64,000 bases of DNA from an uncultured Poribacteria bacterium (lineage in GTDB: Bacteria > Poribacteria > WGA-4E > WGA-3G), in NCBI GenBank assembly GCA_951813565.1, contig OX638351.1:2048001-2112000 (forward strand), written 5' to 3'. Within the stretch, counting starts at the first letter, position 1; the number at the start of each line of letters is the position of its first letter. Positions 54,551-58,620 of the stretch are shown here, one piece after another. The translations under genes were made by a program, and so were the position numbers. The notes beneath the pieces are model-generated. The model searched no databases. It worked only from the letters and a program-made list of their open reading frames with translations, and was not told the origin of the DNA.

Positions 54551-55216
54551 CTAAACCTCGTTTCGGACATCTATTTTGCCTGTCACTACTTCGGAGATGA
54601 GGGATTGACGGTATTCTTTGAGGAGTTCAATTTTTCGCTGCTCTGCTGCTATCAGTTCGTCAATCTGCTTGGTTTTGTGGCTGAGAAAGTTTGCGATTGC
54701 GTTTTGTTCGGTATGCAAAGGTAGAAAAATCTCAAGGTTAGAATATTTTTGACCATTTACATTCCCAATAGTTGATTGAATCGTATTCAGTGTTATCCAG
54801 TCTTCAAAGCAGTCAGATTTTGTGAAATAAAATATAAAACGTGATTTAATAGAACATCCAAAATTGAATCGAACTAAATATGCACCATAAGTATGGTTTT
54901 CATCTGATTGATGGAGATAGGTTCTTCCTAAAGTCCCACTTCTTGAAATTAGAAAATCATTTGGTTGTGTTCGGTAAATTTTCTCGACAGATTTCGCCTC
55001 AAGATAAACTCCGTTATCAATTAGTTCTCCATCATCCGTAATATCTGTAGTTCTGATAAACCTTACCCCTTCTTCGACATAAAAATCGGAGCTTATGTTC
55101 AAACCGTATTGAACAGGTACTAATGATTCATGTTTAAGTCGAGATTTTTTCCAGTGACTCGGTATCTCTCCAATCCACTCCACGCCGCTCTCTTTATATT
55201 CAGGATAACGTCTCAT
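54551..55216 (-). CDS. hsdS: Type I R-M specificity subunit, half-size (single TRD)
   Basis: 'YKESGVEWIGEIPSHW', 'EQNAIANFL', 'LLKEYRQSLISEVVTGKIDV'; only 221 aa. Confidence 0.9.
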   Translation of the reverse strand: MRRYPEYKESGVEWIGEIPSHWKKSRLKHESLVPVQYGLNISSDFYVEEGVRFIRTTDITDDGELIDNGVYLEAKSVEKIYRTQPNDFLISRSGTLGRTYLHQSDENHTYGAYLVRFNFGCSIKSRFIFYFTKSDCFEDWITLNTIQSTIGNVNGQKYSNLEIFLPLHTEQNAIANFLSHKTKQIDELIAAEQRKIELLKEYRQSLISEVVTGKIDVRNEV

Positions 55217-55251
55217 AATTCCAATACCTCATTCAGCAATTCTTCACTTTT
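55207..55251 (-). repeat. hsdM 3'-end repeat copy R4, overlapping the hsdS start
   Basis: Encodes KSEELLNEVLEL*; ATGA overlap with hsdS. Confidence 0.9.
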
Positions 55252-55280
55252 TCCTCAACAATAGGTCGGTACCCAAAAGA

Positions 55281-55658
55281 TCATACGGGCATCAGAGAGT
55301 CAATAGTCACATTACCGTTGTCTATAACCTCTAACGCCAAACGACTTCCATACAGCAGTGACATACCAATCAATGTTCCACCGTCTGCTTGTAGAGCAAG
55401 TATCTCCCGTTCCTGCCCATGCCATAAGACTTTTGCAAAATACATCTCTAACACGACTATGTTTCCATCACCAAGCGTAACGCGCCGACTGCCAGCTTGC
55501 TGAAGATTGAGGGAATTGATTAAATTATTCGGTAGTGTTAGATAGCCATTGAAACCTGTGTCAATGACCGCCTCAACCTTCTCTCTTTTCTGATTTGAAC
55601 CAATAACCTCTAATCCGATGATAGCTTCTCGATGAGTGGTAATTTTTCCATTTATCAT
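55281..55658 (-). CDS. Clan AA aspartyl protease (AF_0612-like)
   Basis: 'AVIDTGFNG', 'LIGMSLL'. Confidence 0.85.
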   Translation of the reverse strand: MINGKITTHREAIIGLEVIGSNQKREKVEAVIDTGFNGYLTLPNNLINSLNLQQAGSRRVTLGDGNIVVLEMYFAKVLWHGQEREILALQADGGTLIGMSLLYGSRLALEVIDNGNVTIDSLMPV

Positions 55659-55924
55659 TCCGTTTTGACCGAAAAGTGTCCACCGATTCGGTAAGCAGTT
55701 GAAAACCCAATTTGTAAGCCGTAAACGACAGCATTAGGGTGCTTAGCAAGGAGCCGTTTCGTGGCGATTAAATCGTCTGTGTTGATTTCGTATTCACCCG
55801 TTTCTATGTCAATAACCAAAAACTTGCCTTTGTGCTTTGGCTCAACTCTGTCTCGTATTTCCCGTTTATAAATTGTTTCACCTCGTGATGCAATTTCTTT
55901 GGCGGTATAATTGGTATATGGCAT
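55655..55924 (-). CDS. DUF5678-like small protein, translationally coupled to the protease
   Basis: ATGA overlap; 'HKGKFLVIDIETGEYE'. Confidence 0.75.
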   Translation of the reverse strand: MPYTNYTAKEIASRGETIYKREIRDRVEPKHKGKFLVIDIETGEYEINTDDLIATKRLLAKHPNAVVYGLQIGFSTAYRIGGHFSVKTE

Positions 55925-55972
55925 AGTGACTTTCTCCTAACGAAATAAGTTGCGTAGTGCTGGTTAATCAGC

Positions 55973-56017
55973 AACGTCTCATAATTCTAACACCTCATTC
56001 AGCAAACCTTCACTTTT
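55973..56017 (-). repeat. hsdM 3'-end repeat copy R3 with dead hsdS start stub
   Basis: Encodes KSEGLLNEVLEL*; its stop overlaps atgagacgtt, identical to the first 10 nt of hsdS. Confidence 0.9.
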
Positions 56018-56324: not shown

Positions 56325-56643
56325 TTTCCTTTTTGATCTGCGTCCACTCCTTACCGCCACCTGCGGCTAATTCTTGTTGTGCTTCAACAATATCTGCTAA
56401 GACATCTGGCTCAGAATTAATCAATGCGGTTTCACGCCATTCGGAGAGAAAAATTGAAAGTGTTTGAGCGTCTTTTTTGCCTTCTGAGATTCGTGTTAGC
56501 AGCTTAAACAATTCATTAAAAAATTCAACAAGTTCTTCTGCCTCTAACCATTTGAGCCAATCAAAGGACTTTGAGGTTGCAACAGATTGGACACTTAATT
56601 GGTCATTCATGAGGTGTCCAACGACAAGTTTTGGTTTTTTCAT
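56314..56643 (-). CDS. Putative antitoxin
   Basis: Acidic small ORF directly upstream of and overlapping RelE; 'WRETALI...LADIVEAQQE'. Confidence 0.7.
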   Translation of the reverse strand: MKKPKLVVGHLMNDQLSVQSVATSKSFDWLKWLEAEELVEFFNELFKLLTRISEGKKDAQTLSIFLSEWRETALINSEPDVLADIVEAQQELAAGGGKEWTQIKKEIGL

Positions 56644-56761
56644 CTGCGACCTCTGTAGTAAGGATTATGTTAATGTTAATTATATATGATTAAGCTGCGG
56701 GATTCAAAGTTTTATGGTAAAGGGACAGCGGAATTTAACGTGAGCTCAGAATAGATAGTGG

Positions 56762-56832
56762 TCGGTAATCATAACTTATCCCTTTTATAAAGCCAAAACC
56801 TCATTCAGCAAACCTTCACTTTTGCGTTCAAG
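56762..56832 (-). repeat. hsdM 3'-end repeat copy R2 with dead ATPase start stub
   Basis: 71-bp match to 58550-58620; LERKSEGLLNEVLAL* then spacer and ATG ATT ACC GA. Confidence 0.9.
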
Positions 56833-57334
56833 TGCTTTGATACAATCGTTGAATATCATCTTCGCAAATAAACTCCACTGTCACACCGTTTCGACGGAAT
56901 GCGTTGCGGAAATCCAACCACTGACTATCTACCGCTTGCAGGATAGGCGGTTCTTCTGGATGGGCACATGCAACCGCTATAAACTTCCGGTCATCTGGAT
57001 CAAAGTCATCCAATGCTGGATCGTCTGGAAACTCCTCAAACTCATTCTCTAAACCACCAATAGGCGTAATTGAAACTAAATCACACCTTTCAGGATTTGC
57101 CCAATTCATCTCTACCCATTTGAGAAATACATCACCGATACTGGGTTGGCCATCTGGATTTAGATGTCCCCGGTATTCATCAATGATTCGCCGCTGATTA
57201 TCCAAAACTAATTTCACTTCACCATTGTTAATTTGTCCAAGCTTCTCAGCACAAACTGCGACACAATCCTCAGATGCCTGTTCTGACTGGCCACTGGCGA
57301 CTAAAGCTACATTTGTATCTACAATCACTGCCAT
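56828..57334 (-). CDS. PIN-domain-like protein
   Basis: 'IVDTNV', 'DPDDRKFIAVA', 'AVD'. Confidence 0.7.
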   Translation of the reverse strand: MAVIVDTNVALVASGQSEQASEDCVAVCAEKLGQINNGEVKLVLDNQRRIIDEYRGHLNPDGQPSIGDVFLKWVEMNWANPERCDLVSITPIGGLENEFEEFPDDPALDDFDPDDRKFIAVACAHPEEPPILQAVDSQWLDFRNAFRRNGVTVEFICEDDIQRLYQST

Positions 57335-58560
57335 TATTTGTTTTCTTTCCGCCGGCGCATTTCGGCTTTCGTTTTTTCTACCAAGTCACCCATCTCATCG
57401 CCAAAGAAATTTTGAGGCCAATTGCTGATGTTACCATATTCGTCAACCTTGAGTCGTTCAATTTCGGAGGTCCCTTCGTTTATCTGGCAGAAATAGAGTG
57501 CTGTTTGATCTACTGAAATATCTTCTTCAGCAATCCGACACATCAAACGTAGTAGCAGATGTTCGCTATGACTTTCAAGGATAATCTGTACGTTTCGATT
57601 TTTCACAACATCAATGAGAACATCTGCTAAGTCTGATTGGACTTTCGGATGTAGATGTGCCTCCGGTTGTTCAAGGATGAGGATTGAATCTTCAGGCGCA
57701 TAATAGCAAAGTGTAAGCACAGGCAGTACTTGAGAAACACCAAAACCAACATCAGTCAGTGGGACTTCTGGTCCGTCTTTATATTGTTTGACAAGACATT
57801 CATAATTTTTACCCTCTTCGGTGACAGGAGGAACATCATAGGAGTAGATCAGGTCTAATTTCCGTAACCATTTCAAAATCTGAACTTCAATTGGGTGGCG
57901 TAGAATCCGGCTCGCAAGCAGGGCAGATATCATCTTTTCACCGTACATCCCAATGTCTTGTGGATGGTCACCCTCCCAAGTATAACTGTGTTGAGGATAC
58001 TCGCGGAGTGGACCGAGATAGATGATTCGAGAAAATAGGCCCTCAAATTCTTCGCTAAGAGGCTTAAATTTTTCTAAAGGTCCTACTGGACTATCAACTC
58101 CATAACATTTGTATGTGTCTGCTTTTTCATCTATAACATTAGGTAAGTACCTATATCCTCGTTCTGTCCAACCTATTTCAAAGTCGTTACGATTTGTTGA
58201 ATAACAAAAACGTTCCACCATCACACTTCCATATTTTTCAAGAATGGCGGTTGAAAAAGAAAGGGAATTGATTAAGTCCCCTTGAATTTTTATTTGCTTA
58301 GGTAGTTTCCACGACACCGAAAAACCTAAACTAAGATTCTTATCGTGAAGGTGAATAACATTATCAAAATTGCTCTTACCAAAGTTTAGTGGTAACTTGG
58401 AATCATTATCTTTTACAGTCTGCTTCAGCATTAACAGTACCTGTAAGATACTGGTTTTGCCGGAGCTATTCGCACCAAAAAGTCCAGTTAATGGGGCGAA
58501 CTGTAGCGGACCTGTATCTTGCCATGATTTGAAATTTCGCGCTCTGAGTTCGGTAATCAT
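57334..58560 (-). CDS. AAA_21 ATPase with DUF3696-like C-terminus
   Basis: GANSSGKT, 'VGFGVSQVLP', 'EQPEAHLHP', 'ESHSEH', 'WPQNFF'. Confidence 0.85.
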   Translation of the reverse strand: MITELRARNFKSWQDTGPLQFAPLTGLFGANSSGKTSILQVLLMLKQTVKDNDSKLPLNFGKSNFDNVIHLHDKNLSLGFSVSWKLPKQIKIQGDLINSLSFSTAILEKYGSVMVERFCYSTNRNDFEIGWTERGYRYLPNVIDEKADTYKCYGVDSPVGPLEKFKPLSEEFEGLFSRIIYLGPLREYPQHSYTWEGDHPQDIGMYGEKMISALLASRILRHPIEVQILKWLRKLDLIYSYDVPPVTEEGKNYECLVKQYKDGPEVPLTDVGFGVSQVLPVLTLCYYAPEDSILILEQPEAHLHPKVQSDLADVLIDVVKNRNVQIILESHSEHLLLRLMCRIAEEDISVDQTALYFCQINEGTSEIERLKVDEYGNISNWPQNFFGDEMGDLVEKTKAEMRRRKENK

Positions 58561-58620
58561 AACTTTTCCCTCTTATAACTCTAACACCTCATTCAGCAAG
58601 CCTTCACTTTTGCGTTCAAG
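58550..58620 (-). repeat. hsdM 3'-end repeat copy R1 (functional end of hsdM)
   Basis: Encodes LERKSEGLLNEVLEL*. Confidence 0.9.

Follow-up and report, generated by a model that had tools for sequence, protein, structure and literature searches.

Copies of the hsdM end between defence and toxin–antitoxin modules in a type I restriction-modification operon of a Poribacteria bacterium

Defence genes nested within type I restriction-modification (R-M) operons are well known, and how they enter without breaking the translational coupling of the resident genes is left unexplained in those parts of the literature consulted here. We describe an operon of this kind from a 64,000-nucleotide (nt) stretch of the genome of a Poribacteria bacterium, a sponge symbiont (GCA_951813565.1, contig OX638351.1, positions 2,048,001–2,112,000; genome size 5.43 Mb), and refer to this whole stretch as the window. 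Between hsdM and hsdS the window carries three two-gene modules delimited by four copies of the hsdM end, and we consider, with a probability of about 0.64, that this interval is a hotspot for defence cargo produced by ordinary recombination between alleles, the repeats being displaced former hsdM ends. Empty alleles, permuted module orders and tail copies that can be traced to other alleles make it possible to put this as a concrete model which could be tested by transformation. No paper describing repeats of the hsdM tail emerged from a literature search limited to main texts without supplements, with most subscription journals outside its coverage.

Integrase-free exchange of cargo between conserved anchors is known from the minimal mobile elements of Neisseria, and arrays of another kind are known from integrons and from tandem islands that sit at the 3′ end of a gene, as SCCmec does at rlmH. 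The window array shares with integrons and SCCmec-type islands the small defence or toxin–antitoxin (TA) modules between repeats, an apparent polarity and a restored gene end, but it has none of four defining features of an integron: there is no integrase, no attC hairpin and no fixed crossover, and the cassettes occur elsewhere without the site instead of bearing it. The array works like an insertion with long target duplication, belongs to the class of defence systems embedded in type I operons, and resembles integrase-free hotspots. Work by Nobusato from 2000 is said to belong alongside insertion with long target duplication.

As that process is described in the consulted part of Furuta, Abe and Kobayashi (2010, PMC2853133), a direct repeat of >30 bp which is unique in the genome and lies over a gene 3′ end surrounds an insert of <20 kb without mobility genes, and an empty one-copy allele is found in relatives; each of these features is seen here, with G016 and L065 as the empty alleles. 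The differences are that there the R-M system is the insert and has one repeat pair, whereas in the present case the insertions go into the R-M operon and the repeat is iterated to four copies; the definition there also asks for R and M genes within the insert, while the window inserts are HEC-03, a TA pair and a protease pair. Furthermore, the window copies seem to stem from more than one allele, and a gene outside R-M (PhyH) also shows such arrays.

The likeness to defence systems embedded in type I R-M operons, such as HEC-03 and PrrC (Payne et al. 2024, 10.1101/2024.01.29.577857; PMC12707154, as far as these sources were available), lies in the co-oriented defence cargo between intact hsd genes and in HEC-03 itself. 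The main text of the former offers no insertion mechanism; the word ‘recombination’ is absent from it and ‘repeat’ occurs once, in an unrelated sense. The enteric immigration control region, in the part of PMC12707154 consulted, likewise has highly variable cargo flanked by conserved genes, together with an unoccupied site and no resident integrase, but internal gene-tail repeats are not described there; in the operon considered here such repeats would allow stacking in addition to replacement.

Repeated hsdM ends and a variable interval

The gene order on the minus strand of the window is hsdM, an ATPase gene, a PIN-type gene, a small gene, a RelE-type gene, a second small gene, an aspartic protease gene, hsdS and hsdR. 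An earlier reading of this DNA made without database searches (the sequence-only reading) had placed four copies of the hsdM end in it, and these are present where it put them, all on the minus strand. Copy 1 (58550..58620) is the working hsdM end with a spacer and the opening codons of the ATPase gene of HEC-03; copy 2 (56762..56832) is of the type ending in EVLAL and a stop, with a remnant of the ATPase start; copy 3 (55973..56017) carries the first three hsdS codons followed by a stop; and copy 4 (55207..55251) is the old hsdM/hsdS junction, with an ATGA overlap and a GAGG-type motif that probably serves as ribosome site. The restoration of the ATGA coupling to hsdS by the last copy, also claimed in that reading, was borne out, as the same overlap is found in the two empty alleles. 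The tail peptides of copies 1–4 are KSEGLLNEVLEL, KSEGLLNEVLAL, KSEGLLNEVLEL and KSEELLNEVLEL, each ending at a stop codon. Since copy 2 runs into ATPase codons and copy 3 into hsdS codons, each copy records a former follower of a working hsdM end; the tail and the hsdS start are common to copies 3 and 4, which are 91% alike, as a duplication of one chromosomal target would predict.

The repeat is 41–71 nt long, with pairwise identities of 34–38/41 nt (83–93%) and longest identical runs of 14–26 nt among the four copies. Using a tail profile built from related hsdM ends, the four copies scored 44–49 bits compared with 17.3 for the next-best site on both strands of the genome, and a genome-wide blastn search with the repeat returned just these four at E<1e-4; these are the only four copies in the genome, and they are not due to chance. 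Exactly one two-gene module of 0.8–1.8 kb lies between each pair of copies, as had been proposed.

The stretch is present in 8 public runs from 4 studies, of which four runs (3 studies) were compared, all as contigs, and the same array is kept in these four runs of near-identical strains. Among the pieces listed, copies 1 and 2 are each bridged in X2 and X8 and copy 3 in all four runs, while copy 4 is covered by overlapping pieces, none of which bridges it by 31 nt on both sides. In X2 there is one contig joint that spans the hsdS specificity domain and encloses different sequence, and from this joint it would appear that the specificity domain changes faster than the cassettes. Two odd joints (X7, X8) with other sequence beside copy 1 were set aside as they probably come from other Poribacteria in the same sample.

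We compared the window with related loci. hsdM was detected in 34 of the 61 genomes searched, from which 29 long regions and 2 short loci were taken, and 32 Poribacteria-type loci were added after the removal of 13 duplicates and 2 truncated loci, giving 64 loci including the window; a further 33 loci came from other taxa. The number, content and order of the cassettes vary among the relatives. In 49 loci with hsdS in reach, the hsdM–hsdS gap ranges from −3 to 10,831 nt with a median of 5,579 nt (the first half of hsdS was missed in a few, which inflates the gap), and the tail repeat is also found at other hsdM loci, with 40 extra copies in 32 of the 64. Among the 46 loci with cargo, the extra copies number none in 17, one in 23, two in 5 and three in the window alone. 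Stretches between copies measure 0.7–8.5 kb, and one module per repeat throughout is seen in the window only; module borders coincide with the repeat there and in G002. HEC-03 precedes the TA module in the window and in L117, whereas TA precedes HEC-03 in G022 and L098, and the TA/HEC-03 junction of G022 has no tail.

The cargo includes HEC-03 (36 ATPase and 30 PIN open reading frames, ORFs), Uma2, 15 Rpn-type ORFs and insertion sequences, as well as the short and Schlafen-type Argonautes, SEFIR, SIR2/NACHT and PD-Lambda-4-like genes that liken these relatives to the embedded-defence class; 31 of the 57 cargo representatives scanned have no Pfam match. On an hsdM tree of 48 rows, HEC-03 (fragments included) requires 10 gains or losses, 9 of them forced by strong branches, compared with 13.6 in shuffles.

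The origin of the copies was also addressed by comparison. The extra copies do not resemble the hsdM end of their own locus more than those of other loci (mean percentile 0.58, with 19/37 above half), and for 24 of the 40 (13 in mid-array and 11 before hsdS) the DNA on the right aligns with the sequence beyond a working hsdM end at another locus, while only 2 match the working-end flank of their own genome. Copy 2 of the window matches the working hsdM end of G002 at 37/39 nt, with a continuous flank of 419 nt, and copy 1 at 34/39 nt; the TA module of G002, from its working hsdM end to a tail copy, corresponds to the window from copy 2 to copy 3 (863 nt, 84%). Copy 4 agrees in 38/39 nt with the working end of G016, an empty allele. 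The modules and hsd genes have their best DNA matches in different relatives: G029 for HEC-03 (95%), L112 for TA (91%), L096 and G050 for the protease pair (86%), G020 for the hsdS domain (89%) and G029 for hsdM (87%).

The left borders of the 40 extra copies are scattered from −58 to +9 nt, with 17 at two positions, and many loci share the joint between a PIN gene end and the tail but carry different cargo after it. Decay is further advanced in the copies immediately ahead of hsdS (median 24 bits, n=12) than in those in mid-array (42 bits, n=28; p=0.009); the hsdS start region is retained, and in many loci, judged by eye, just a purine-rich remnant of the tail is left before it. Concerted evolution of copies inside one genome was considered and was not seen in the copy comparison.

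Proposed recombination between alleles and the alternatives

In the model we favour, donor DNA would first pair through hsdM (58573..60300; minus strand; a type I methyltransferase of 575 amino acids, aa), which would provide a long homology anchor for allelic exchange, and would deliver its own hsdM end and cargo, while at its far end a short-homology joint would link it to the recipient in roughly the final 60 nt of hsdM. Because this joint falls inside the last ~60 nt, the tail would be duplicated without a second step. This first step could be accommodated by homology-facilitated illegitimate recombination, with its RecA-dependent homologous anchor and joint of 3–10 bp, although the consulted part of the source (PMC6382021) shows this in Streptococcus, Acinetobacter and Pseudomonas, not in Poribacteria, and describes no gene-tail arrays. 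The recipient’s old end would then be displaced downstream along with its followers, a pattern which is seen in the arrays and for which exchange is the suggested cause, and the survivors would be those events that left hsdM whole and the hsdS ribosome site and ATGA intact. Thirdly, as the permuted arrays suggest, an out-of-register crossover between a tail copy and a working hsdM end could set a tail-ended module before the array of any allele, and in consequence cassettes would accumulate mainly next to hsdM. The process would require no dedicated recombinase, and other gene ends in the genus would be affected as well; turnover would be on the scale of species divergence, with old copies decaying or vanishing, and a dispersed repeat which abuts copy 3 and several hsdS starts may supply the first joints.

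It should be noted that several observations weigh against this model. No recombination event was observed, and no tail-to-tail joint is found among the 15 joints listed, out of 17, for the four runs (contigs drop rare variants); the 3′ end of the window hsdM shows no switch towards G029, the candidate donor of HEC-03. The identical runs of 14–26 nt are at or below the minimum of 25–35 bp quoted in PMC6382021 (in the part consulted); runs of this length fit the stability of the array in the public runs, and re-use would therefore probably need the long hsdM anchor. Competence of the host is suggested by genes only, as ComEC and DprA families are present in the genome. Tail duplication was not seen in any of the 33 loci from outside Poribacteria, including 13 with gaps of at least 640 nt. 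The loci are akin and not independent, so that the counts and the p-value given above overstate independence and describe a pattern rather than numbers of events; in particular, the 11 of 40 left borders at −11, mostly at a PIN gene end, probably go back to one old event. Finally, relative to copy 1 the other copies in the window have 9 silent and 3 coding changes, but the three pairs compared all share copy 1, and across 37 scorable copies the ratio of coding to silent change (pN/pS) is 0.42, not far below the ~0.55 estimated for duplication and decay; as these values are close, the test is only suggestive.

Part of this evidence could also be expected if each copy were an inert scar, i.e., a one-off target duplication in one chromosome which was never re-used, with the cargo changing by other routes. 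The cargo-bearing loci without an extra copy, the tail-free junction in G022, the overall pN/pS and the array left unchanged in four runs are all in keeping with this. However, scars made in one chromosome should not produce copies that are not closest to their own hsdM end, nor a copy 2 nearer to the G002 working end than to copy 1, and the same PIN-end and tail joint precedes varied cargo in many loci; we therefore regard the explanation as unlikely.

Capture might instead be driven by small mobile repeats, perhaps moved by a Y1 transposase, or by Rpn/YhgA nucleases, with the tails as by-products. The dispersed repeat consists of ~10-nt units with a fixed 9-nt end and in 12 relatives recurs at a small set of positions ahead of hsdS (34 nt before it in 7 loci and 10–13 nt in 5), in some of which it replaces the hsdS start codon; it abuts a tail in 5 loci, and its decayed end abuts copy 3 in the window (56019..56035, minus strand). 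The genome also has 10 matches to Y1 transposases, Rpn-type ORFs are among the cargo, and Rpn is reported to be linked to RecA-independent transfer (PMC5350276). Set against this, most tail borders have no dispersed repeat, there is no Rpn gene in the window array, and with 18 strict copies of the repeat genome-wide its co-occurrence with hsdS may reflect tolerance of insertions. As the driver of capture we find this improbable; it is compatible with the first step of the allelic-exchange model.

Rpn/YhgA genes also occur further along the operon, as in L037, L050, L063, L101 and L161 hsdS 3′ ends and one hsdR 5′ start are duplicated around cargo in the hsdS–hsdR gap, often with Rpn/YhgA genes and short C-terminal Rpn/YhgA repeats.

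The sequence-only reading had proposed an integron-like platform at the hsdM end. The general idea of recombination at this end holds, but a dedicated, integron-like system special to hsdM was overstated, given the scattered borders, the cargo loci without an extra copy, the modules found tail-free elsewhere and the similar array at PhyH. For a site-specific recombinase acting in trans on the hsdM tail, one can point to the repeats that mark all module borders in the window, the left borders shared at two positions, and matches in the genome to one tyrosine recombinase and three resolvases. The tyrosine recombinase, however, has 207 aa and lies 2.66 Mb away, and neither an integrase, whose absence that reading had noted, nor another recombinase is found among the window ORFs or nearby. 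None was found near the fetched Poribacteria loci by tblastn with two queries from the window genome (with the sensitivity of single queries), and the 57 cargo representatives yielded only transposases and Rpn in a scan which left out 67 of the 131 ORF clusters, these being short singletons, and 7 core or window clusters. The reported absence of an attC-like palindrome was confirmed by 8 folds (four copies, both strands), with z-scores of −1.11 to +0.95 and no hairpin. Moreover, the range of left borders leaves no fixed crossover, conservation of the repeat tracks codons, many other sites harbour TA and protease modules, with no alignment reaching a tail copy in the 17 loci examined, distant tail copies are mostly in relics of hsd loci, and the unrelated PhyH tail behaves alike. 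We consider such a recombinase very improbable.

An assembly artefact, to which the single metagenome-type contig and a likely one-base slip near 56303 might point, almost certainly did not produce the array, as the copies differ from one another, contigs from independent runs bridge copies 1–3 and half of the loci show the same feature.

The movement of tail and cassette units to new sites was rejected after examination of 11 distant tail matches, of which 8 have hsdM or hsdS pieces, 2 more are at the same groEL site and 1 is on a short contig. This second site lies behind groES–groEL in L160, L162, L164, L165 and L166, where relic hsd loci consist of an hsdM tail, cargo and sometimes hsdS.

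Gene-tail arrays outside hsdM

Among 3,244 long genomic ORFs, the final 60 nt recur downstream in 94 cases compared with 58 in a mid-gene control, and these are mostly tandem paralogs; three non-paralog tail copies are found only for hsdM and for one PhyH dioxygenase gene. In the PhyH array (G000:C1:1483394-1486451; L171), the final 23 codons occur in four copies that flank genes for a Gp49-type toxin, an antidote and T5orf172, and the PhyH tail occurs in two or more copies in 16 of the 35 genus genomes with a match. As this second array is at a metabolic gene, restriction activity is not required.

We tentatively raise the possibility, to which we give less than even odds, that gene-tail arrays are a general counterpart of integrons that does without a recombinase, in which a displaced gene end with its ribosome site would be a reusable homology handle and cassettes would enter from the promoter side. 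Poribacteria might then run several (at hsdM, PhyH and relic groEL sites), trading one pool of defence and TA modules between strains sharing a sponge. If so, tails would be actively kept in circulation, and hunting for repeated gene tails would reveal new defence genes. Repeated gene tails could in any case mark sites to be mined for such genes, given the share of cargo representatives without a Pfam match.

Further repeats were seen in the genome (G000:C1:4368697-4370730 and 5039131-5040552), namely direct repeats of 51 and 43 nt around PIN-type TA genes at a second type I locus and a gene end duplicated over 370 nt next to a further pair of this kind.

Modules, hsd genes and neighbours in the window

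All features of the operon and its two transporter neighbours described below are on the minus strand. The module names given in the sequence-only reading were upheld by family models for the ATPase and PIN genes (which are HEC-03), the RelE-type toxin and the aspartic protease, while its ‘antitoxin’ and ‘DUF5678-like’ labels are unconfirmed. The first module is confirmed as HEC-03 because its adjacent genes match both models: the ABC/AAA ATPase (57334..58560; 408 aa) matches PADLOC HEC-03B (E 3.9e-109) and the PIN-type partner (56828..57334; 168 aa), whose stop overlaps tail copy 2, matches HEC-03A (E 1.6e-32). We note that the A and B labels in PADLOC are the reverse of those in the consulted text of 10.1101/2024.01.29.577857, which reports anti-phage activity for another HEC-03 member. 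In five loci from one genus (L049, L050, L051, L056 and L057), one PIN gene follows a tandem series of two or three HEC-03 ATPase genes that have diverged from one another.

In the second module, the RelE/ParE-type toxin gene (56037..56317; Pfam E 2e-7) is preceded by a gene for a putative antitoxin of 109 aa (56314..56643). No Pfam, PADLOC or NCBIfam match was obtained for the latter and an Atlas search gave a weak DUF6247 lead but no name, so that its label follows from its position. The RelE-type gene is probably one base short near 56303, as all four runs have an extra base and the homologs are 93 aa long and begin at the antitoxin stop; the frameshift is probably an assembly slip or peculiar to this strain. 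A sigma-70-like site ahead of the pair (56679..56707) is only a 10/12 consensus match, and a promoter scan found no excess of such sites in the region (14 compared with 12.6 in shuffles). The third module has a clan AA aspartic protease of 125 aa (55281..55658; TIGR03698, E 1.3e-16, over the cut-off) and a small partner protein of 89 aa (55655..55924), for which there was no Pfam match and only unnamed clusters in the Atlas search.

Downstream of the array, hsdS (54551..55216) is of half size, with 221 aa and one specificity domain, as it also is in G006, L062 and L099. Its DNA aligns with the first half of full-size relatives and with their C-terminal end, as if deleted between the two conserved repeats, and half-size HsdS can work as a homodimer. 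It is followed by hsdR (51554..54547; 997 aa).

The operon has conserved anchors on both sides, an amino-acid ABC transporter binding protein gene upstream (60357..61388) and what is, from its sequence and context, probably the amino-acid ABC permease gene downstream (50350..51522); among the loci searched, the upstream gene was found in 13 and the downstream gene in 9. The entire type I operon is thus nested (50350–61388) within an amino-acid ABC transporter operon, between binding protein and permease, in many members of the genus. Beyond the upstream anchor, 61586–62785 encodes a secreted-looking protein of 399 aa with weak, below-cut-off matches to zinc metallopeptidase models.

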